Assembly: GCF_046119375.1 (NCBI RefSeq)
Contig: NW_027363230.1
Location: 310,001 to 374,000, forward strand
Direction: 5' to 3'
Length of the DNA: 64,000 bases
Source of the DNA: Phyllobates terribilis
Lineage: Eukaryota
Below are positions 6,601 through 43,773 of this stretch, piece by piece. A program made the translations under genes and the position numbers. Position 1 is the stretch's first letter, and each line of letters starts with the position of its first letter. The notes under the pieces were generated by a model. The model searched no databases and was not told the DNA's origin. It saw only the letters and a list, made by a program, of their open reading frames with translations.

Positions 6601-9600
6601 GAGTGTTAGCACGCAAACAACAACCTTGCATCGGCAACTTCATTTTCGAGGAGGTGCCTAATATAGGAGCAGTCATCCGGGCCATTGGCTGGGGACTCTT
6701 TAGGACAGCAAGAACAGTGTCCGGGGAACTGCGCGTGCTGCGCACACCCCGGGCAGATGCAGCAGGGGAGCCGGAAGACGCCGGGACAGCGGCTGTGAGG
6801 GGATCGGTGTCTCTGCCCGGCAGGAGGCAAAGACGCCGACGCTACAGTGACTTTTACAATATTTGTTTCAGGGTGAAGATCTGACCCATATTAATACCAC
6901 AGAGACATATGTGAGGGGAGATGAGAAGTGTAAAGAGGAGATTCCTACATATGACTACCCAGGTGAGTAGTAACCACTAAATACAGAGAAGTCACAGATT
7001 TTTCTCAGATAATAGTGTAGAAAACCGCAACACTGGTGGAATAGGTGCGCAAGTAGGGTCCAAAGCCATTCAAAAAGCAAATGAAACTTGACAGGCATAA
7101 TTTTAAAGTATTTAATTGCAGTCCAACACAGGTACAATTGTTTTGGTCCTCAAGACCTTCATCAGTGTGTGCTGCAGCATAAAGAAATAAAAGTAAAAAC
7201 TACATATATCAGACAAAAGCATAAAAAGTACTAGAAACAAACTGTCATAAGGTATTTCTGAAATTCATAATTATCTGAAAATCAAAAACATTGCAATAGA
7301 GTGCACATAATGGCTGTATAATAAGTGTGACCTACCAGACTGCTAGGAATATAGTTAAAGGTGAAAGCAGGAAGTACACAGTGTCTCAGTGGATAGACAG
7401 GATCTAGGGAGACAAACAGCCATAAGAACACCAGCCTCATAATGATTATCCAATAGGTACCAGCAGATATACAGTGGGTACGGAAAGTATTCAGACCCCT
7501 TTAAATTTTTCACTCTTTGTTTCATTGCAGCCATTTGGTAAATTCTAAAAAGTTCATTTTTTCTCATTAAAGTCCACTCTGCACCCCATCTTGACTGAAA
7601 AAAAACAGAAATGTAAAATTTTTTGCAAATTTATTAAAAAAGAAAAACTGAAATATCACACGGGCATAAGTATTCAGACCCTTTGCTCAGTATTGAGTAG
7701 ATGCCCCCTTTTGAGCTAGTACAGCCATGAGTCTTCTTGGGAATGATGCAACAAGTTTTTCACAGCTGGATTTGGGGATCCTCTGCCATTCTTCCTTGCA
7801 GATCCTCTCCAGTTCCGTCAGGTTGGAGGGTGAACGTTGGTGGACAGCCATTTTCAGGTTTCTCCATAGATGCTCAATTGGGTTTAGGTCAGGGCTCTGG
7901 CTGGGCCAGTCAAGAATGGTCACAGAGTTGTTCTGAAGCCACTCCTTTGTTATTTTAGCTGTGTGCTTAGGGTCATTGTCTTGTTGGAAGGTGAACCTTT
8001 GGCCAAACCTGAGGTGCAGAGCACTCTGGAAGAGGTTTTCATCCAGGATATGTCTGTACTTGGCCGCATTCATGTTTCCTTCAATTGCAACCAGTCGTCC
8101 TGTGCCTGCAGCTGAAAAACACCCCCACAGCAAGATGCTGCCACCACCATATTGCACTGTTGGGATTGTATTGGGCAGGTGATGAGCAGTGCCTGGTTTT
8201 CTCCACACATACCGCTTAGAATTATCACCAAAAAATTCTATCTTTGTCTCATCAGACCAGAGAATCTTATTTCTCATAGTCATAGGTTTTGAGCAAACTC
8301 TATGCGGGCTTTCATATGTCTTGCACTGAGGAGAGGCTTCCGTCGGGCCACTCTGCCATAATGGCCCGACTGGTGGAGGGCTGCAGTGATAGTTGACTTT
8401 GTGGCACTTTCTCCCATCTCCCCACTGCATCTCTGGAGCTCAGCCACAGTGATCTTGGGGTTCTTCTTTACCTCTCTCACCAAGGCTCTTCTCCCACGAT
8501 TGCTCAGTTTGGCTGGACGGCCAGGTCTAGGGAGACTTCTGGTGGTCCCAAACATCTTCCATTTAAGGTTCCTAAGAGCACAGTGGCCTCCATAATCCTT
8601 GAGTAATGCAGAAATTCTTTTATAACCTTGGCCAGATCTGTGCCTTGCCACAATTCTGTCTCTGAGCTCCTTGGGCAGTTCCTTTGAGCTCATGATTCTC
8701 ATTTGGTCTGACATGCACTGTGAGCTTTGAGGTCTTATATAGACAGGTGTGCGCCTTTCCAAATCAAGCCCTATCAGTTTAATTAAATACAGCTGGACTC
8801 CAATGAAGGAGTAGAACCATCTCAAGCAGGATCACAAGGAAATGGACAGCATGTGACTTAAATATGAGTGTCTGAGCAAAGGGTCTCAATACTTATGACC
8901 GTGTATTTCAGATTTTCTTTTTTAATTTGCAAAAAATTCTACATTTGTTTTTTTTCAGTCAAGATGGGGTGCAGAGTGTACTTTAATGAGAAAAAAATGA
9001 ACTTTTTAGAATTTACCAAATGGCTGCAATGAAACAAAAAGTGAAAAATTTAAAGGGGTCTGAATACTTTCCGTACCCACTGTATGTAGAAACATACCCA
9101 GTAGTGAGAGCAGGAAGTATGACAGGTGTGGAATGTGGTATTCCCCGCTGGTTCCTAAGGTCGCCATGTCAAGGGAGGAGAAAGCCTAGTATATGTGGTC
9201 AGAGGGCAGGACCTAATGTCCCAGGAGACCAGTCAGGGTGAACCGCTAGTGTAACGTTCCTGGAAGTGGACTGAAGCGATAGGAGGCGGTGTCTGGATAG
9301 CAGTGACGTCACCGGAAATGACGACATGTCGAGCGCCGCTAACGATTGCCTGAAGGCTTAGGAGGAGGCGTGGCTGGAGAAACTGAGGGCGAACGTGCGT
9401 TCCACGGTGCAGGATGTGCATGTCAGAGGCTGTGTCATGCGTTGCAACAGCAACGGTGTTCTGAGTGGGTGGAGTGCGTTCCAGAACAGGGGAGTTTGCA
9501 TTTCACTATGTGATGAGGGATGGAGGTCGTGCAGGACAAAAAAATAATAAGCCTGGAAATGTGACAGGAGGTGAACATGTGTAAGTGGATCAGCCTGTGG

Positions 9601-18600: not shown

Positions 18601-21600
18601 AAATATTGAAATACTACTCTGTATGCCCCCTACAAGGTCATTAATAAATATGTTAAAAAGAAGGGGGCCCAATACTGACCCCTGTGGTACCCCACTGTTA
18701 ACTGAGACCCAGTCTCAGTGTGTTCCATTAATAACCACCCTTTGTTTCTTATCACTGAGCCAATTCTTAACCCACATACATATATTTTCCCCTATCCCCA
18801 TTGTTCTCATTTTATGTATCAACCTTTTGTGTGGAACCGTATCAAAAGCTTTTGAAAAGTCCATATACACAACATCCACTACATTTCCTTGGTCCAGTCC
18901 AGAACTTGCCTCCTCATAAAAGCTGATCAGATTAGTTTGACAGGAACGGTCCCTCGTAAACCCATGTTGATATTGGGTCATGAGGTTATTCTTCTTCAGA
19001 TACTCTAGTATAGCATCTCTTAGGAAACCCTCCAGGATTTTACTCACAGTAGAGGTTAAGCTTACTGGCCTATAATTTCCAAGTTTGGTTTTTGTCCCCT
19101 TTTTGAATATTGGCACCACATTTCCTTCCTATACGCCAGTCCTATGGTACAAACCCTGTTATTATGGAATCTTTAAGGATTAAAAACAATGGTCGATCTA
19201 TGACGTTACTTAATTCCTGCAGTACTCGCGGGTGTATCCCATCCGGGCCCGGGGATTTGTCAACTTTAGTGATTTTTAGACACCGCCATCAGGGGCGCAC
19301 ATAGGAATCATGGGGCCCCATAGCAGAAGTTCTAATTGGGCCCCCCCCCCCCCCAAAAAAAAGTAAATAATTGTCGGGGTCACAGAAGAGCAGATCTCAC
19401 AACTTTGCAGCCTTTACATAGTAATTTTCCTCCTGCTGAAGTCCTAGATTCCTTTTTCATTGCCCCATAAAGTGTGATGCCAACAATGCCAACAAAAGTG
19501 TCCCCAAACACAGTATGATACCCCCATGGTGAATTCCTCCACATTCACAGTATAATGACCCTATTGTACCCCACCTCAACTCCCAAGGCAAATTATGGTG
19601 ACCCCAACACAGTATGATCCCCCAACTGTGACCCCCACACAGCCCTCCATGCAGTATAATGGGCCTACATACAATATAATGGCCCCACACCTCTCCACAC
19701 TCCAGAGAGTATAATGCACTCGCCATGGTCCTCCATACATTATAAGGCACTCGCCATGGTCCTTCACACAGTATAATGCACTCGCCATGATCCTCCATAC
19801 AGTATAATGCACTCACCATGGTCCTCCACATAGTATAAGACACTCACCATGGTCCTCCACACAGTATAATGCACTCGCCATGGTCCTCCACACAGTATAA
19901 GACACTCGCCATGGTCCTCCACACAGTATAATGCACTCGCCATGGTCCTCCACGCGGTATAATGTGTAATGCACACGCCCGGACTGACTGGCGTGTGCGT
20001 GTTTATGTAGTGATTCCACTGTGCCATGAACCGGAGAGTGCCTGGAGGGGCATAACTAAGTATCTGCCCGATCCGACCAAGGTCGCACAACGGCATACGA
20101 CGCCAGTACACCAGGGAGGAACCGAGCAGAGGAACCAGGGTCTACTCCAGGTCAGACTCCGGACACGGCTGTTGACCCACACCGGGGAATACAGGAACAG
20201 GCAGACTAGGGCGCAGGCTGGGTAGGGTCCAGTACAGACTGGGAGACAAATTTGAAACCGCAGACGCGGTGGACAGAGCTGAGCAAAGCGAAAACCGCAG
20301 ACGCGGTGGACAGAGCTGAGCAAAGCGAAAACCGCAGACGCGGTGGACAGAGCTGAGCAAAGCGAAAACCGCAGACGCGGTGGACAGAGCTGAGCAAAGC
20401 GAAAACCGCAGACGCGGTGGACAGAGCTGAGCAAAGCGAAAACCGCAGACGCGGTGGACAGAGCTGAGCAAAGCGAAAACCGCAGACGCGGTGGACAGAG
20501 CTGAGCAAAGCGAAAACCGCAGACGCGGTGGACAGAGCTGAGCAAAGCGAAAACCGCAGACGCGGTGGACAGAGCTGAGCAAAGCGAAAACCGCAGACGC
20601 GGTGGGGACAGGGCTCTGTACACACGGAACAGACTAGAAGGGAAAGGCAGAACCAGATACCCACAGGGTACTTGCAGAGAAGTAGCGAGTGGACCACAAA
20701 CTCACAAACGGAAGTACAGTGACAACGAGCAGGAGTTAGGTATGAGTTCAGACTGCAGAAAAAAGGGAAAGTACGAACATAGAGAAAAACAAAACAGGCT
20801 AGGAGAGTATTCAGACAAGAACAGACACAGCAGCAAGATACAGGAGCGGGTCTAGGTATGCGGTCCCTAGAAGGCGGAACGAACAGGCAGGAGCGAGTTC
20901 ACACAGGCCTGGAAATACAGCCTCCAGGATAGGCAGAAGACAACAAGCTAGAAGATAATACAGACAGGACACAGTTCAGACACGGGAACTGATACCGAAG
21001 GCAGGAAACATAAACGGGACCTGGCATATCAGTGACCAAAGGCCAACTGATAGAGCACAATGCTCAGGCAGGGATTCATTGGAGCAGCTGGGTTAAATAC
21101 CAGATGGCAGACAGCAATAGGCTGAGGACACACAAGGGGTGTGCCTGCAGCAGGTACAAAAAGCAGGAAGTGATCGGGCGCCGCCCTTAAGCAGCAGACA
21201 CAGAGGCAAACAGCATGGAGGGAAGCCAGGCTAGCAAACTGGACTGGAGATCAAGTGCGCTCTCTTGCACAGTGGGAGATGGACCACTATGCAAGGATGC
21301 CGCCAGGTATGTTACAGTACCCCCCCCCCCTTACGCCCCCTCTTCTTCAGTCCTGCCAGAATGTTCCGCAGGGAATTCGAGGGCCAATCCTTTACTTCAA
21401 GGAGATCACTTCGACTGTCCACCGGAAAAACTGGTCTCCTCTGGGTAGCTAGGATGCTACCTCCTATCCAGCCATCCTCAGCAACAGACGAAACGGGTGG
21501 AGTACCAGGAATAGCACACAAGGAAGTCTCTCTCCACTTATTATCAGGTAGCACCCCAGAGGGTTCAGGAGACAACTGGAAGCCCTCCGACGGGTTGGAG

Positions 21601-24600
21601 GGGTGCAGAGACTCGGGGGTAACCTCTGCTTCGGGGTACATCTTGTCAAGCTCACAGGATGAAATGGGCTAGGTATCAGGTACAAGGTGTAGAAAAGTCA
21701 CTGTCTCTTTGTTATCAGGTGGTACCCCAGAGGATTCGGGAAACAACTGGGGGTCCTCCGCCGGGTCGGAAGAGTGCAGAGACTCGGGGGTAACCTCTGC
21801 TTCGGAGTACACTAGGTCGGACTCACTGGAAGAAGCGGGCGAGGTATCAGATACCGAGTATAGGAGAGTCTCTGTCCATTCGCTATCAGGTAGCACCCCG
21901 AAGGGTTCAGGAAACAACTGGAGGTCCTCCGCCTGGTCGGATGGGTGTAGAGACTCGGGGGAAACCTCTGCTTCGGAGTACACTAGGTCGGACTCACTGG
22001 ACGAAGCAGGCGAGGTATCAGGTGCAGAGTATAGGAAAGTCTCTGTCCATTCGCTACCAGGTAGCACCCCAAAGGGTTCAGGAGACAACTGGAGGTCCTC
22101 CGCCTCGTCGGAGGGGTGTAGAGACTCGGGGGTAACCTCTGCTTCGGAGTACACTAGGTCGGACTCACTGAATGAAGCGGGCGAGGTATCAGGTGCAGAG
22201 TATAGGAAAGTCTCTGTCCATTCGCTACCAGATAGCACCCCGAAGGGTTCAGGAGACAACTGGAGGTCCTATGCCTGGTCAGAGGGGTGTAGAGACTCGG
22301 GGGTAACCTCTGCTTCGGAGTACCCTTGGACAGGCTCACCGATTAAAGTGGGTGAAGTATCAGATACCAGGTGCAGGAAGTCCTCCTGTGTGGATTCTGG
22401 GTGGGCAGCAGTCTCTTCGGGCAGGAGAACTGGTGCGCTACCCACGCACATTACCCATCAGGGCTGCTCCGGGATACTGGGAAATGAAGCTTCAACAGGG
22501 ACTTCAAGGTTGGGGTCAGGAGGTCTTTGGGAGGACAGACCCTGGTGTGACGGCTTGCCTCTACGCCTATCACGTCTGGACTGCCTCTTAAGGTTGGGAA
22601 AAGTATTCCGGAGAGCGTAGTCATCCTGTGTGGATTCTGATTGGGCAGTAGTCTCTTCGGGCAGGAGTACTAGTGCTCTACCCACACACATTACCCATCG
22701 GGGCTGCTCCGGGATATTGGGAAGTGAAGCTTCAGCAGGAGCCTCCGGGTTAGGATCATCGAAGACCATTAGAAAGGCCACAAGGAAGGCCATTATGTCG
22801 AGGACGATAGGATCCTGTGTTTCCCATAGGGGGTTGATCCATTCCAAGGCATCACCCGCTAGGTTAGACATAATGAATCCCACCTTAACCCAATCGGTGG
22901 GAAAACAAAGAGGGTAGAACTTGAAGTGTAGCATGCATTGCTCCACAAATGCACGACTCTGTCTTGGATCCCCATAGTACCGTGGCGGATCCGCAGGAAC
23001 GAGAGCTGATAGATCCATCTGGACGGGTGCGTAGTTCGTCTGGAACTCAGCTAGAGAAAAAAAAAATTATTTATTTTTAATGCATGTATTCGCTGGAAAA
23101 CGTCTCAGAGATCGAAGGCCGTGGGGCTCAACGGGAACCATGGCCTGAGCATGCTGTAATGCACACGCCCGGACTGACTGGCGTGTGCGTGTTTATGTAG
23201 TGATTCCACTGTGCCATGAACCGGAGAGTGCCTGGAGGGGCGTAACTAAGTATCTGCCCGATCCGACCAAGGTCGCACGACGGCATACGACGCCAGTGCA
23301 CCAGGGAGGAACCGAGCAGAGGAACCAGGGTCTACTCCAGGTCAGACTCCGAACACAGCTGTTGACCCACATCGGGGAATACAGGAACAGGCAGACTAGG
23401 GCGCAGGCTGGGTAGGGTCCAGTACAGACTGGGAGACAAATTTGAAACCGCAGACGCGGTGGACAGAGCTGAGCAGAGCGAAAACCGCAGACGCGGTGGA
23501 CAGAGCTGAGCAAAGCAAAAACCGCAGACGCGGTGGACAGAGCTGAGCAAAGCGAAAACCGCAGACGCGGTGGACAGAGCTGAGCAAAGCGAAAACCGCA
23601 GACGCGGTGGACAGAGCTGAGCAAAGCGAAAACCGCAGACGCGGTGGACAGAGCTGAGCAAATCGAAAACCGCAGACGCGGTGGACAGAGCTGAGCAAAG
23701 CGAAAACCGCAGACGCGGTGGACAGAGCTGAGCAAAGCGAAAACCGCAGACGCGGTGGACAGAGCTGAGCAAAGCGAAAACCGCAGACGCGGTGGACAGA
23801 GCTGAGCAAAGAGAAAGCCGCAGACGCGGTGGACAGAGCTGAGCAAAGCGAAAGCCGCAGACGCGGTGGACAGAGCTGAGCAAAGCGAGAGCCGCAGACG
23901 CGGTGGACAGAGCTGAGCAAAGCGAGAGCCGCAGACGCGGTGGACAGAGCTGAGCAAAGCGAGAGCCGCAGACGCGGTGGACAGAGCTGAGCAAAGCGAG
24001 AGCCGCAGACGCGGTGGACAGAGCTGAGCAAAGCGAAAACCGCAGACGCGGTGGGGACAGGGCTCTGTACACACGGAACAGACTAGAAGGGAAAGGCAGA
24101 ACCAGATACCCACAGGGTACTTGCAGAGAAGTAGCGAGTGGACCACAAACTCACAAACGGAAGTACAGTGACAACGAGCAGGAGTTAGGTACGAGTTCAG
24201 ACTCTGCAGAAAAAAGGGAAAGTACGAACATAGAGAAAAACAAAACAGGCTAGGAGAGTATTCAGACAAGAACAGACACAGCAGCAAGATACAGGAGCGG
24301 GTCTAGGTATGCGGTCCCTAGAAGGCGGAACGAACAGGCAGGAGCGAGTTCACACAGGCCTGGAAATACAGCCTCCAGGATAGGCAGAAGACAACAAGCT
24401 AGAAGATAATACAGACAGGACACAGTTCAGACACGGGAACTGATACCGAAGGCAGGAAACATAAACGGGACCTGGCATATCAGTGACCAAAGGCCAACTG
24501 ATAGAGCACAATGCTCAGGCAGGGATTCATTGGAGCAGCTGGGTTAAATACCAGATGGCAGACAGCAATAGGCTGAGGACGCACAAGGGGTGTGCCTGCA

Positions 24601-26830
24601 GCAGGTACAAAAAGCAGGAAGTGATCGGGTGCCGCCCTTAAGCAGCAGACACAGAGGCAAACAGACAGCATGGAGGGAAGCCAGGCTAGCAAACTGGACT
24701 GGAGATCAAGTGCGCGCTCTTGCACAGTGGGAGATGGACCACTATGCAAGGACGCCACCAGGTATGTTACATAATGCACTCGCCATGGTCCTCCACGCGG
24801 TATAATGCACTCGCCATGGTCCTCCACGCGGTATAATGCACTCGCCATGGTCCTCCACGCGGTATAATGCACTCGCCATGGTCCTCCACGCGGTATAATG
24901 CACTCGCCATGGTCCTCCACGCGGTATAATGCACTCGCCATGGTCCTCCACGCGGTATAATGCACTCGCCATGGTCCTCCACACGGTATAATGCTCTCTC
25001 CATGGTCCTGTATGCAGTATAATGCGACAGTATAATGAACTCCCCATGGTCCTCCACGCAGTATAATGCACCCCATGGTCCTGTACGCAGTATAATGCAG
25101 CCCCCCATAGGGTAAAATGCAGCTTCCCCCCACTATAGGGTAAAATGCCGCCCCCAGTCCTCCAGTTTTATCAGTATTCACTGATTTATAAATAAATACA
25201 TACTTACCGCTCCTCGTTCCCCACTGCTTCAGTCTCTGCAGAGCGTCTGTGTCATCACCTCAGTAGCTGCCAGCTCCACTGTCTGACAGAGCGTGGAGCG
25301 TCATCACGCCGCTGCGTCAGACGCAGAGGAGGAATGATGGGAGAGAGAGTGTCACATGACGTTCCCTCCTCCATCATTGCTATCAACCAGGGCCGACTCC
25401 AGATTTTCGTGGGCCCCGGGCGAAAGAGTCTCAGTGGGCCTTTTAATACATACACCATTCATGATGCACAGATACCGTAGAGAAATATAGGTATAGTACA
25501 CAGGGCCCAGGCTGTCCCCTCATCCTTCATATACTGTATGCAAACATGCACACGCACACACACATTGCGCAGACATGCGCGCACACACACAGTACGCAGA
25601 TATGCGCGCACACACAGTACGCAGATATGCACACACTCACAGTACGCAGAAACGCGCGCACACACACACAGTACGCAGACATGCACACACACAGTACGCA
25701 GACATGCACACACACAGTACGCAGACATGCACACATACAGTACCCAGACATGCGCACACACACAGTACGCAGACATGCGCACGCGCGCACACGGTACGCA
25801 GACATGCGCACACACAGTACGCAAACATGCGCACACACACAGTACGCAGACATGCGCACACACACAGTACGCAGACATGCGCACACAGTACGCAGACATG
25901 CGTGCTCGCACACGGTACGCAGACATGCGTGCTCGCACACGGTACTCAGACATGCGCGCTCGCACACGGTACGCAGACATGCGCACACACGGTACGCAGA
26001 CATGCGCTCACACAGTACGCAGACATGCGCGCGCACACGGTACGCAGACATGCACACACACAGTACGCAGACATGCGCGCGCACACAGTACGCAGACATG
26101 CACACACACAGTACGCAGACATGCGCACGCGCGCACACAGTACGCAGACATGCGCACACAGTACGCAGACATGCAAACGCGCGCACACAGTACGCAGACA
26201 TGCGCACACGGTACGCAGACATGCGCGCGCGCACACAGTACGCAGACATGCACGCACACAGTACGCAGACATGCGCACGCGCGCACACAGTACGCAGACA
26301 TGCGCACGCGCGCACACAGTACGCAGACATGCGCACGCGCGCACACAGTACGCAGACATGCGCACGCGCGCACACAGTACGCAGACATGCGAACGCGCGC
26401 ACACAGTACGCAGACATGCGCACGCGCGCACGGTACGCAGACATGCGCGCGCACACGGTACGCAGACATGCGCGCGCACACGGTACGCAGACATGCCCGC
26501 GCACACGGTACGTAGACATGCGCGCGCACACGGTACGCAGACTTGCGCACAAGGTACGCAGGCATGCGCGCGCGCACACGGTACGCAGACATGCGCGCGC
26601 GCACACGGTACGCTGCGCGCACACACGGTACGCAGACATGCGCGCACACGTTACGCAGACATGTGCGCGCGCACACTCACATTACGCAGACATGCGCGCG
26701 CACACGTTACGCAGACATGCGCGTGCACACGGTAAGCAGACATGCACATACACAAACAGATACTCAGATAACTACACATACAGACATACGTACATATTTG
26801 AACACATTCTTAAAAACACATAAAACAGAC

Positions 26831-40100: not shown

Positions 40101-43100
40101 CTTTATTCAATCTGTTACGTTACTAATGATCCCAGATTGTGAAGATAAACTGAACTTAAATTGGTATTATTCTTTTAGCGCCCCCATTCACACCTTTACC
40201 AAGAAGACCACTGGGACATAGATGATAAATGCAGACTAGTTCAATATGCTATCCAAGTATGAAGGATTGACTGGACCTGTTACTCAGCAGCTATCCTTTG
40301 GACTGTATTTAATAGAATCACCCCAGACCGAGGGCATCGTCCAGAGACCTTATTTACCAATATCAGTAATATTGCTAGTAAAGGGCAGTGAAGTTTTGAG
40401 ACCTTAGTGAAACAGATCTACAAGCCCCAAGTTGTCTTGCTAACCGGGCAACCCCCCGTGAGGCAGACAGCTGAGGAAAATCCTAGACCTAACGTGGCAG
40501 GTTCTTCCGCAACTATTAAGCGGTCTAAAAAAACCTTCAGACAGGCCAACGTGAGTCATAAACCTACACCTGAATTGGCATGAGGCCTAGCTGTGAGGCT
40601 CTATGCAAACCATGAGGTCTAGCCATGAGGCTCAATATGCAAGCCATGAGGCCTAGCCGTGAGGTTCAATACGCAAGCCGTGAGGCTCAATACACAAGCC
40701 ATGAGGCTTAATACGCAAGCCATGAGGCCTAACTGTGAGGCACAATACGCAAGCCATGAGGACTACCGTGAGGCTCATTTCGCAAGCCATGAGGCCTAGC
40801 CGTGAGGTTCAATACGCAAGCCATGAGTCATAGCCGTGAGACTCAATACGCAAGCCATGAGGCTCAATACACAAGCCATGAGGCCTAGCCATGATGCTCA
40901 ATACGCAAGTCATGAGGCCTAACCGTGAGGCTCAATACGCAAGCCATGAGGCCTAACCGTGAGGCTCAATGCACAAACCATGAGTCCTAGCGTGAGGCTC
41001 AATACACAAGCCATGAGGCCTAGCCTTGAGGCTTTATACACAAGCCATGAGGCCTAACCATGAGGCTCAATACACAAGCCATGAGGCTTAGGCCAAAAAA
41101 ACGTAGGTAGGTACGGAATCATTAAATTTAGATTCTTCCAGACTGATGTTATCATTTCAGCGCCCAACTGGGCCCCTGCTCATTGCCACTCACTAGAGGT
41201 AGCTATAGAACTCAGCATGGTGTTCCATGATTCACTGGTGTTCCATGATTTACGGCTGCTCCAGCCGTGAGCTCCAGGCTTCTACATCCTTGAGGACAGG
41301 AAACCACATTGAAGGAGGAAGTGGGGGTTGCCTTTTTATTTTGTGCTCAGGGCTTCCTGTCCGGTAATAGGGGCAGATCCTACTCTCTCTCGTATGGTGC
41401 TGTCATGGGGGAAGGGAAAAAGGTGGCTCCTGGTGACAGAAGCAGATGTCACAGTAGGAGATCCCAGAGGAGATAGGACACACCATTTGCAGAAGCTCTT
41501 ATATGACACAATGGCAGAAAACCAGATCAGTAGAAATCACCTTAAAGTGGCTCCATTTTGGAAATTATAACCCTCAGTGAATTAATCTATAGGAGTAGTG
41601 ACTATTTTGACTCCAAAGCCACTTTCCTGAAATTAGCACGCTGTGGATGTTGTAGAGTGAAAATTGCACATTTGTTGTTTTATAACCCAACACATAGTGT
41701 CCAGATTGTGCTCCAGGAGACACACACCATCAATTAAGTGGGTTCTTCTCACTATAGTAATGCCAAATACATGGATGATAAATGTGGTTTGGGCACACTG
41801 CAAAGCTCAGAACAAGGGGGAGATTTGACTTTGGGAGAGCAGATATTGCTGGATTGGTTTATGAAAGCCATGTTGCTTTTCAAGAGCCTTTGAGCCACTA
41901 ATAATGTGGAAACCTCTGTTTTTCAGATGATGGACCTGAGTGAGGACTTGTTTTTTTGTGAGATGAGAAGTTTTTTTTGGTATTATTTTCGCTTACATAA
42001 CATTGTTTGGTGGCTTTTTATTCCATATATGGGAAGCAGAATGAACAAACAATTGAACACCACGCTCTTCTGGTTCATCCTATGAGGTTATCTATTAGAC
42101 TGTGAACTGTCATTGTCTTGGTGAATAATTCAATTTTTTTGCATAACTTCCCATTTTTACAGACAGTTTAAGTAGAAATGTTCAAAAATATATAATTACA
42201 CGGATTTTTTATTAAAAAATACTAATTGCTTTTATTATTGGCAGATGATTGTACCAGGAGATCAGAGGGACAGCTGACATCTTCAATTTTCAAATCAGAT
42301 AATTTTGAGATCTCAGAGGATACAATTGAAGTGAATAGCATTACTCCAGATATACCATCATCCCTTCACATCAAAGATCTGTCTTCTGATCCTTTGAAAC
42401 AGGTTCTGTCTTCTGATTCATTACCGACTACTCAGAAAAATCAGAGTCACAAAATAAGCATTAAAAAACAAATTGCTCCTAAAGCAAAGAAGCCATTTTC
42501 ACGTTCAGAATATAGAAATAGTTTTCCCCTCAAAAAGTCTTTTCTTAAGCATGAAAAAATTCACAAAGCGAAGAATAGATTTTCTTGTTCCAAGTGTGGG
42601 AGATGTTTTAATCAGAAATCAGATTTTGTTAGGCACCAGATAACTCACACAGGAGAGAAGCCATTTTCCTGTTCAGAATGTGGGAAATGTTTTACAAAGA
42701 ATTCAGATCTTATTGGACATCAGAGAACTCACACAGGGGAGAAGCCATTTTCATGTTCAGAATGTGGAAACTGCTTTACAGTGAAATCAAATCTTATTGC
42801 ACATCAGAGAACTCACACAGGGGAGAAGCCATTTTCATGTTCAGAATGTGGGAAATGTTTTATAAAGAAATCAAATCTTATCAGCCATCAGAGAACTCAC
42901 ACAGGGGAGAAGCCATTTTCATGTTCAGAATGTGGGAACTGCTTTACAGAGAAATCAAATCTTATTGCACATCAGAGAATTCACACAGGGGAGAAGCCAT
43001 TTTCATGTTCAGAATGTGGGAAATGTTTTGCAAATCAATCAAATCTTATCAGCCATCAGAGAACTCACTCAGGGCAGAAGCTATTTTCATGTTCCGAATG

Positions 43101-43773
43101 TGGGAACTGCTTTACAGAGAAATCAAAGCTTATTACACATCAGAGAACTCACACAGGGTTGAAGCCATTTTCATGTTCAGAATGTGAGAAATGTTTTGTA
43201 CAGAAATCAAATCTTATCAAACATCAGAGAATTCACACAGGGGAGAAGCCATTTTCATGTTCAGAATGTGGGAAATGTTTTGTACAGGAATCAAATCTTA
43301 TTAGACATCAGAGAATTCACACAGGGGAGAAGCCTTTTTCATGTTCAGAATGTGGGAACTGTTTTACATTGCAATCAACGCTTATCGACCATCAGAGAAC
43401 TCACACAGGGGAGAAGCCATTTTCATGTTCAGAATGTGGTAAATATTTTGCAAAGAAATCAAATCTTAGCAAACATCAGAGAATTCACACAGGGGAGAAG
43501 CCATTTTCATGTTCAGAATGTGGAAAATGTTTTGTACGGAAATCAAGTCTTATCAAACATCAGAGAACTCACACAGGGGAGAAGCTTTTTTCATGTTCAG
43601 AATGTGGGAAATGTTTTACAGAGCAATCAACGCTTATCGAACATCAGAGAACTCACACAGGGGAGAAGCCATTTTCATGTTCAAAATGTGGGAAATGTTT
43701 TAACCAGAAAGCGCATCTTGATAGCCACCGGAGAACCCACACAGAGGAGAATGCCGCAGCTACACCCAACTAG
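505..43773 (+). CDS. Spliced KRAB-like C2H2 zinc-finger gene (amphibian oocyte/gastrula ZNF, XlCOF/XlCGF-like), 6 coding exons, ~707 aa
   Basis: Exons 505-606, 734-913, 997-1120, 1203-1300, 6872-6962 and 42245-43773 all have GT/AG borders and compatible phases (0,0,1,0,1). They total 2124 nt = 707 aa + stop with no internal stop. An alternative in-frame ATG lies at 529. No transcript evidence is available. Confidence 0.8.
734..913 (+). CDS. ZNF coding exon 2 (DYTVVKKT...[16 protein letters not shown])
   Basis: Acceptor ccataaccAG at 732-733, donor GTGACA at 914; 180 nt, phase 0/0. Confidence 0.8.
997..1120 (+). CDS. ZNF coding exon 3, KRAB-A-like box ([21 protein letters not shown])
   Basis: KRAB-A-like DVAVYFSxEEW motif; acceptor gtgtcAG at 995-996, donor GTAATA at 1121. 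Confidence 0.85.
1203..1300 (+). CDS. ZNF coding exon 4 (linker, ...[24 protein letters not shown])
   Basis: Acceptor ttttccttcAG at 1201-1202, donor GTAGAT at 1301; phase 1/0 keeps the frame. Confidence 0.75.
1479..2092 (-). repeat. 3' LTR of the sushi-type element
   Basis: TG..CA ends; homologous to 6252-6846; TATA-like TATATTA on the minus strand at 1859-1853. Confidence 0.9.
2110..5364 (-). pseudogene. pol: protease (LDSGA), RT (YxDD mutated to CLND), RNase H, integrase, chromodomain
   Basis: ORF pieces 4846-5364, 4438-4680, 3412-4110, 2822-3550, 2677-2877, 2142-2408 and 1918-2217 ([13 protein letters not shown] chromodomain); multiple stops and frameshifts. Confidence 0.9.
5292..6238 (-). 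pseudogene. gag, frameshifted, with degenerate CCHC knuckle ([14 protein letters not shown])
   Basis: ORF pieces 5969-6238, 5607-5981 and 5509-5832 (retrotransposon gag RLRQG motif); ATG 14 nt after the 5' LTR. Confidence 0.85.
6252..6846 (-). repeat. 5' LTR of the sushi-type element
   Basis: TG..CA ends; homologous to 1479-2092 with many substitutions and indels. Confidence 0.9.
6872..6962 (+). CDS. ZNF coding exon 5 ([30 protein letters not shown])
   Basis: Acceptor atttgtttcAG at 6870-6871, donor GTGAGT at 6963; 91 nt, phase 0/1. Confidence 0.75.
7126..7170 (-). ncRNA. Degenerate minimal hammerhead-like motif in PLE pseudo-LTR (second copy at 15905-15950)
   Basis: CTGATGA-a-GGTC/GACC stem-AAAAC on the minus strand; G12 of the GAAA core is replaced by A in both copies. 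Confidence 0.4.
7472..9082 (-). mobile_element. Tc1-like DD34E DNA transposon with IR/DR-type long TIRs, defective
   Basis: TA TSD (7470-7471 / 9083-9084); ~200-bp TIRs starting CAGTGGGTACGGAAAGTATTCAGACCC with an internal direct repeat; transposase split into 8280-8825 and 7687-8430 ([14 protein letters not shown]-34-E). Confidence 0.95.
10432..13574 (-). mobile_element. CR1 LINE copy 1 (near-complete ORF2: APE endonuclease + RT), disrupted
   Basis: ORF pieces 13206-13586 (YTNARSL, GISETW), 12391-13185, 11557-12273 and 10630-11514 (FADD); 3' tail of CTATGTTA repeats; 7-bp TSD GTAATTG (10425-10431 / 13575-13581). Confidence 0.95.
16097..16652 (+). mobile_element. Solo LTR (556 bp)
   Basis: TG..CA ends, 4-bp TSD CTGT (16093-16096 / 16653-16656), AATAAA near 16577; interrupts the PLE pseudo-LTR. 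Confidence 0.8.
20255..20606. repeat. 37-bp tandem repeat in the 3' LTR, 9 units + partial
   Basis: AAAACCGCAGACGCGGTGGACAGAGCTGAGCAAAGCG, head-to-tail, no spacers. Confidence 0.95.
21312..23018 (-). pseudogene. Gag capsid-like domain (RTL/LDOC1-like) fused to acidic Ser/Pro/Glu 57-aa repeats; one frame with 3 premature stops
   Basis: ORFs 22458-23018, 22269-22451, 21669-22259 and 21312-21641 share one frame; N-terminus PPRYYGDP...FVEQCMLHF...GDALEW; 171-bp repeat anchors at 21610, 21781, 21952, 22123 and 22294. Confidence 0.75.
23445..24056. repeat. 37-bp tandem repeat in the 5' LTR, 16 units + partial
   Basis: Same unit as 20255-20606, with variant units clustered at ~23808-24003. Confidence 0.95.
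25538..26760. repeat. CpG-rich alternating purine-pyrimidine minisatellite (ACACAGTACGCAGACATGCGC variants)
   Basis: Variable ~21-27-bp units, followed by (AT)n at ~26835-26882. Confidence 0.9.
29022..29370. mobile_element. hAT-type MITE (TIR TAGTGATGAGCG)
   Basis: Perfect 8-bp TSD GTTCTAAT (29014-29021 / 29371-29378). Confidence 0.9.
29550..31720. repeat. Degenerate ~370-400-bp tandem units, probably the interior of a non-autonomous DNA element
   Basis: Recurrent CACATATGGGGTAT and CAAAATGG-GTCACTTG anchors near 30036, 30417, 31105 and 31490; no termini found. Confidence 0.5.
33316..37909. mobile_element. 4.6-kb fold-back non-autonomous hAT element (TIR TAGTGTTGAGC)
   Basis: Perfect 8-bp TSD TTCAGGAA (33308-33315 / 37910-37917); ~1.6-kb inverted arms at 33454-~35030 and ~36140-37733. 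Confidence 0.9.
38620..39150. repeat. Four ~125-135-bp tandem units inside the DIRS element
   Basis: Recurrent GGCACAATCAAGTT...AGGAGGGTAGATTG. Confidence 0.75.
39386..40123 (+). mobile_element. Old 5'-truncated CR1 3' fragment inside DIRS
   Basis: Degenerate [34 protein letters not shown], ending in a GTTAC-repeat tail. Confidence 0.75.
40575..41095. repeat. 34/21-bp VNTR (GCCATGAGGCCTAGCCGTGAGGCTCAATACGCAA) near the DIRS 5' end
   Basis: About 16 imperfect units seen directly. Confidence 0.85.
42245..43773 (+). CDS. ZNF terminal exon: spacer, one degenerate finger and 14 C2H2 fingers
   Basis: ORF 42226-43773 carries 14 CxxC-x12-HxxxH fingers with TGEKP-type linkers; acceptor tttattattggcAG at 42243-42244, phase 1. 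Confidence 0.95.

Follow-up and report, generated by a model that had tools for sequence, protein, structure and literature searches.

Non-autonomous long terminal repeat (LTR) elements are usually thought to need either RNA signals only or a whole Gag. Plant elements of the TR-GAG type are described as non-autonomous LTR elements that have kept a gag open reading frame (orf) without the enzymes, and in which tandem three-LTR arrays are common (PMC13570524). The zebrafish Bhikhari-1 and Bhikhari-2 and chicken ENS-1/ERNI are presented as young, multi-copy, pol-less vertebrate LTR families with a single Gag-related orf of ~600 amino acids, mobilised by a partner (PMC12067270), and Xenopus 1A11 as a frog LTR element that encodes a 71-kDa protein with similarity to Gag (PMC4585706). 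Among host genes of the RTL/SIRH group, RTL8 and LDOC1 are reported to be sushi-derived capsid proteins consisting of the N-terminal lobe (N-lobe) only (PMC11684626, PMC11011659); RTL8 is said to form no particles alone and to enter those of PEG10 (PMC11684626). Gag-only mobile elements and N-lobe-only host genes each have precedents. The element described here lies on the minus strand at 19965-24771 of a 64-kb window of the Phyllobates terribilis genome (contig NW_027363230.1, positions 310,001 to 374,000), to which all coordinates refer unless another stretch is named. It is one decayed member of a large LTR family without pol, whose frame encodes a capsid N-lobe only, a variable number of 57-residue acidic units and the last ~13 residues of Pol. 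Disabling stops and frameshifts in this frame did not spread in the family, and amino-acid constraint is moderate and confined to the N-lobe, the tail being near-neutral.

The exact 26-nt junction of LTR end, primer-binding site (PBS) and ATG occurs 3,080 times in the 10.6-Gb host assembly, and its reversed control does not occur at all; the element is thus, as a first-pass annotation made from the letters of the window had supposed, a member of a multi-copy family and not a single deletion derivative. Copies were gathered in three samples. Similarity to the capsid piece selected 99 stretches including the window, with 105 starts, 94 of them with the tail and 3′ LTR visible; removal of 9 copies that shared flanks with another left 85 copies, of which 50 are open. 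Similarity to the tail selected 31 stretches with 30 units, 11 of them open. The third sample took junctions in genome order, blind to the orf, and constitutes the unbiased set: leader and capsid piece are present in 40/40, 36 units are complete, 16 of these have an open frame, and pol is missing between capsid piece and 3′ LTR in all 36. Across the three samples, 77 of 151 copies are open from the ATG to the polypurine tract (PPT), bearing out the expectation that source elements have an open frame. The predicted product of ~568 amino acids did not stand as a property of the family, being only the length in the window copy: open copies encode 405-899 residues up to the PPT, in length steps that are mostly of 171 nt, and there is no fixed C-terminus, since the orf continues past a G-run of variable length and enters the 3′ LTR in any of the three frames.

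The copies are young and structurally regular. The target-site duplication (TSD) is exact in 101 of 136 copies and has at most one mismatch in 116, and median LTR divergence is 1.3-1.5%. The 5′ LTRs measure 0.8-2.6 kb and contain a 37-bp array of highly variable length, which would lie in the transcribed R region. Tandem LTR-internal-LTR-internal-LTR arrays were found at eleven of the sampled loci, and in 7 of 146 units an internal part follows straight after the 3′ LTR. The subfamilies are diverged (N-lobes 74-92% identical) and mosaic.

The 74 broken copies carry 88 distinct lesions, of which 79 are private and nine occur in two or three copies; none is found in more than three. The carriers of those nine are not close neighbours, the nearest co-carrier ranking 7th or worse of 150. 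All 152 alleles that reached at least four copies are missense or silent, with no stop among them, versus 19 stops among 497 private alleles (3.8%; p=0.011). Insertions and deletions (indels) follow the same pattern, and the first-pass expectation that they would be multiples of three holds for the front part of the frame, where those present in at least two copies are in frame in 9 of 9 cases; the figures are 13 of 38 for private indels and, in the LTR and leader, 19 of 81 for shared indels (LTR alignments are noisy, and poorly aligned copies were dropped per region). Among the datable copies of the unbiased set, 14 of 32 are open versus 14.8 expected if copies insert open and then decay, an expectation whose frameshift-to-stop ratio derives from the same data; other expectations are 28.6 (from LTR gap rates) and 63.5 (from stops alone) versus 51 of 103 observed. 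The proportion of open copies agrees with neutral decay after insertion in the open state. The frame might have been under no selection at all, a few sources having stayed open by chance while in-register slippage of the repeats kept the frame; the youth of the copies agrees with this, as do unit changes that are in frame by construction and a whole-tree codon test that was not significant. Such an account would have to accommodate many diverged subfamilies, the absence of stops from widely shared alleles, shared front-part indels that are all in frame, and an in-frame connection of gag piece and Pol end by novel sequence, and it appears the least probable of the explanations considered.

The ratio of nonsynonymous to synonymous substitution rates (dN/dS) had been proposed as a check on the frame, and it indicates constraint in the N-lobe alone. 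With CpG sites excluded, N-lobe alleles shared among copies of the unbiased set have a dN/dS of 0.41 (p=0.0025) and private alleles 1.06 (private versus shared, p=0.048); in the tail-selected set the N-lobe value is 0.51 overall (p=0.004), with 0.82-1.26 in shifted and antisense frames. Values from copies chosen by N-lobe similarity were discarded as biased. The linker and C-terminal parts are near 1 and the unit types ~1.4 (tail range 0.9-1.4), so the tail shows no amino-acid constraint. This tail is what would be expected if the frame were kept for the RNA, full translation shielding genomic RNA from nonsense-mediated decay or holding polysomes and the protein being largely incidental: an effect in cis, a tail free in sequence and in length, and no fixed stop are all predicted. 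Left unexplained would be the lower dN/dS of the N-lobe and the intactness of its predicted fold at ~50% identity to the helper clade, and the predicted 3′ untranslated region is already 1.3-2.5 kb long; a role in RNA protection only is judged unlikely.

Residues 11-89 of the product share 53% identity with the Gag of a complete relative, and a profile of relatives aligns them to the N-terminal part of the Ty3 capsid; in the same profile, family homology stops where the C-lobe of PEG10 begins. The DUF4939 match suggested by the first-pass annotation was recovered in the window frame (E=7.9e-7). The N-lobe is predicted to fold with a pLDDT of 89, and the predicted fold aligns with the N-terminal domain of the Ty3 capsid over 74 residues (Z 7.4, root-mean-square deviation 2.5) and with residues 41-130 of dArc1 (Z 8.9). 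The capsid piece, which is real and moderately constrained, lacks the N-terminal extension, C-lobe and zinc knuckle, so that "capsid-like protein" overstates what is an N-lobe only. The final residues match the Pol C-terminus of autonomous relatives in the same frame. Pol of those relatives likewise reads through the PPT into the LTR, and this Pol-derived end accounts for a family without a fixed stop. The in-frame sequence between the gag piece and the Pol end is novel: linker and repeats have no tblastn match in 20 stretches around autonomous relatives, and an Atlas search of the repeat gave no result. At E≤0.001, no homologous protein was found for the read-through frame or for residues 1-110, though only candidates of 312-994 residues were compared, which is not evidence of absence. 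A single-sequence search of the PDB had no match, and neither did Foldseek at E≤0.001, where capsid lobes nonetheless ranked highest. Of the 150 best relatives in the library, 79 have a C-lobe, and none was accepted by the filter for an N-lobe with acidic repeats; three that passed it were rejected as unrelated fusions.

The window copy has the parts that the first-pass annotation had recognised, namely an intact TSD, a PPT and near-identical LTRs without pol, no pol domain having been found in the element. The TSD (CATTA read on the minus strand; upstream copy 24772-24776, downstream copy 19960-19964) sits within a 31-bp tandem array. The 5′ LTR (23155-24771, 1617 nt) and 3′ LTR (19965-21316, 1352 nt) both have TG...CA ends; between them, 15 of 1352 aligned sites are mismatched (1.1%), two small gaps occur and the arrays are about seven 37-bp units apart in length; the 37-bp array has 16.5 units in the 5′ LTR (23445-24054) and 9.5 in the 3′ LTR (20255-20605). 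A TATA-like box with a putative promoter role (24544-24550) lies ~25-30 nt upstream of a 10-nt complement of the PBS (24511-24520), the likely RNA 5′ end and self-primer. CATAAA (23192-23197), the sole poly(A)-signal-like hexamer among those scanned in the LTR, would, if functional, imply a long R and a short U5. The PBS of self-priming type (23143-23152) is followed by an upstream orf of 24 codons (23067-23141), a length kept in 109 of 147 copies, which begins at the position of the gag start of autonomous relatives. A T-run with a terminal AG (23051-23066), 32 nt before the main ATG and present in 126 of 151 copies, is a candidate splice acceptor; contigs of five runs of uncertain kind contained no splice joint, which is no evidence either way.

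The main frame of the window copy (23018-21312; 1707 nt, 569 codons) was correctly seen to have three single-base stops and no frameshift. It begins with the N-lobe (22743-23018, codons 1-92, DUF4939), followed by a Pro/Ser-rich linker (22344-22742) with a short basic patch and the 80-codon duplication already noted (240 nt, 22379-22518 versus 22619-22758, 86%). About five acidic Ser/Pro/Glu units of 171 nt (57 amino acids) follow at 21487-22323, as also recognised at first pass; they amount to 4.7 tandem units, and net charge across residues 236-500 is -51. The last, Pol-derived codons (21317-21359) are in the frame of autonomous Pol and overlap the PPT. The remaining two minus-strand frames have 15 and 46 stops; one plus-strand frame has only 4, so the low stop count of a single copy is not strong evidence by itself. 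The stops, at codons 187 (22458-22460), 250 (22269-22271) and 450 (21669-21671), arose after insertion. The insertion is found with shared flanks in nine places, mostly small contigs and with the adjoining gag-pol element co-duplicated, representing either segmental duplication or uncollapsed haplotypes, and the stops differ among these copies: four have all three internal stops, four have one and one has none.

Elsewhere in the window, an 84-bp tandem repeat of 14 units (42579-43751) reads like a C2H2 zinc-finger array, and a 250-residue open frame on the minus strand (7687-8439) resembles a Tc1/mariner transposase.

By its sequence features the family is assigned to the self-priming Tf1/sushi group of Ty3/Gypsy elements: it has TG...CA LTRs, a 5-bp TSD, a PPT, a self-priming PBS and homology in Gag and the end of Pol. 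Ten nucleotides of the PBS can pair with 24520-24511 of the LTR, just after the TATA-like box, and the exact 10-mer is present in 114 of 140 copies; complementarity of 10 nt was reached by 4 of 2000 shuffles. Compensatory PBS pairs occur in two autonomous families, and 13 of 16 autonomous junctions, from 20 stretches, give 10 nt. Complementarity of the PBS to the RNA start is described as the self-priming signature of Tf1 and its relatives (PMC4600332).

Autonomous Tf1/sushi chromoviruses of the same genome share with the family a PBS complementary to the predicted RNA start, a PPT, a 5-bp TSD, an LTR 3′ part that is 70-78% identical and a Pol frame running into the LTR. They differ in having a full gag, protease, reverse transcriptase, RNase H, integrase and chromodomain, and in lacking the linker and repeats. 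An uninterrupted pol frame of 1150 codons was found in three of 20 autonomous relatives examined, several of which have LTRs that are 98-99% identical. The window itself contains a decayed complete gag-pol element of Tf1/sushi type with a chromodomain end (6857-1478, minus strand); among the autonomous relatives found, those of its clade are the closest, with at least 150 genomic matches. This autonomous clade would be a plausible source of enzymes. A partner with matching LTRs was not found among the relatives examined, and a search for the identical junction with an ATGGAY start gave two matches, the one inspected being an ordinary family member. The gag-pol element nested in stretch L148 was ruled out as the closest partner, its N-lobe being 30% identical and its LTR unrelated. 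This more distant sushi-type gag-pol element, with 424-nt LTRs, is nested in family copies in L148 (4288-8400) and in L179, once per orientation. In L070 (6320-6990, minus strand), a family LTR interrupts another decayed gag piece of sushi type, whose identity to the N-lobe is 57%.

With ~3,000 copies of which nearly half are open, a product acting in trans would have let broken copies spread, and therefore the benefit of the frame is inferred to be in cis, assuming many source elements, as the diverged and mosaic subfamilies suggest. On the favoured reading, the open frame benefits its own RNA, probably by tethering it to helper capsids. Replicating members would keep one long frame open; the N-lobe would fold and join a helper capsid before the ribosome has left the tail, and the nascent chain would be the tether that brings the ribosome-bound parent RNA into the particle. 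The tail would then be a length spacer holding ribosome and RNA behind the folded N-lobe, while reverse transcriptase and integrase would be supplied by the related gag-pol clade. This nascent-chain tether is the simplest model, because it accounts for a constrained N-lobe together with a tail free in length and sequence; that the half-capsid docks into related gag-pol capsids during translation and carries its own RNA in is given slightly less than an even chance. It is doubtful whether the wider picture applies, in which a helper parasite replaces mimicry of RNA signals with a protein hook, achieves cis-preferential packaging without a nucleocapsid and stands as a precursor, alive and still mobile, of the N-lobe-only design of domesticated genes such as RTL8 and LDOC1.

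The same half-capsid could act in trans as a dominant negative that curbs the helper, either for copy-number control or to the benefit of the host, in the manner of RTL8 or of Ty1 p22, reportedly an analogous half-capsid. A bulky acidic tail might poison the lattice. The truncation is the same as in RTL8 and LDOC1 (PMC11684626, PMC11011659), and a host benefit has been proposed for Bhikhari Gag (PMC12067270). Yet a trans inhibitor would not need every source to be intact, and lesions nevertheless did not spread; moreover, ~3,000 young copies imply a family that depends on helper activity, and inhibition is considered quite improbable.

Several observations weigh against tethering in cis. The structural Z-scores are of middle rank, and C-lobes reach similar values, so that the N-lobe assignment rests on sequence position. 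A whole-tree codon model for the N-lobe did not reject dN/dS=1 (log-likelihood difference 1.06), the contrast of nonsynonymous to synonymous changes between N-lobe and linker was not significant (p=0.10 in the tail-selected set, p=0.51 in the unbiased set), and private N-lobe alleles gave inconsistent dN/dS values (0.49 and 1.06 in the same two sets); a dN/dS of 3.5 for private alleles of the C-terminal 115 codons in the unbiased set is unexplained. Three shared gaps in the last 400 nt are not multiples of three; they did not reappear when lesions were called and probably stem from misalignment. Any gain or loss of a complete unit preserves the frame automatically, the 9 unit types with 0 stops in 97 changes reach only P=0.06, and an antisense frame comes close to this across the units (1 stop in 9). 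An antisense orf was ruled out as the selected frame, having more stops outside the units and no constraint. The predicted 1.5-kb leader has nine upstream ATGs; together with the 24-codon upstream orf and the acceptor-like motif, these make splicing of the mRNA more likely, and the tether model would be weakened if it occurred. Support for the helper is at the level of the clade, and the mammalian analogue RTL8 is reported to lower particle output rather than help packaging (PMC11684626).

If the cis tether is correct, a half capsid under selection in a spreading family would point to another route by which a helper can be exploited. Should the frame matter for RNA stability alone, it would still be a clear case of selection on a frame and not on a sequence. 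The family offers a natural many-copy system for studying how LTR elements favour their own RNA, and bears on how N-lobe-only capsid genes such as RTL8 and LDOC1 could arise before domestication. No description of a mobile family with an N-lobe and acidic repeats was found in the literature searched, which was mostly open-access and covered neither Repbase/Dfam nor supplements.

Compared with the known systems, the family resembles TR-GAG elements in being a repeated LTR family with a gag-derived orf and without protease, reverse transcriptase, RNase H or integrase, and hence non-autonomous. In contrast to the complete Gag of that type, its homology ends at the boundary of N-lobe and C-lobe, without Retrotrans_gag or zinc knuckle; as far as TR-GAG elements are described, it is also set apart by its expanding acidic repeats, its animal host and its self-priming clade. 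Bhikhari and ENS-1/ERNI are reported to be of retroviral origin, with a coiled coil and capsid domain and shown developmental roles (PMC12067270), whereas this family is derived from Tf1/sushi elements, has half a capsid and is known here from sequence alone. Xenopus 1A11 could be compared by its description only, and neither an N-lobe-only protein nor acidic repeats are part of the account consulted (PMC4585706). The resemblance to RTL/SIRH genes proposed at first pass extends to shared ancestry in the clade and to the N-lobe-only truncation of RTL8 and LDOC1, and a fast-evolving disordered region is described as usual in domesticated genes of this kind (PMC11299033). It does not extend to domestication, since the family is dispersed and mobile: there are 3,080 junctions in place of a single locus, with LTRs and TSDs, and the window copy is broken. 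RTL8 and LDOC1 have become fixed as domesticated genes of the host, and the available account describes RTL8 as an inhibitor of particle output (PMC11684626), while the present family is mobile, with ~3,000 copies, and selection on it appears to act in cis.

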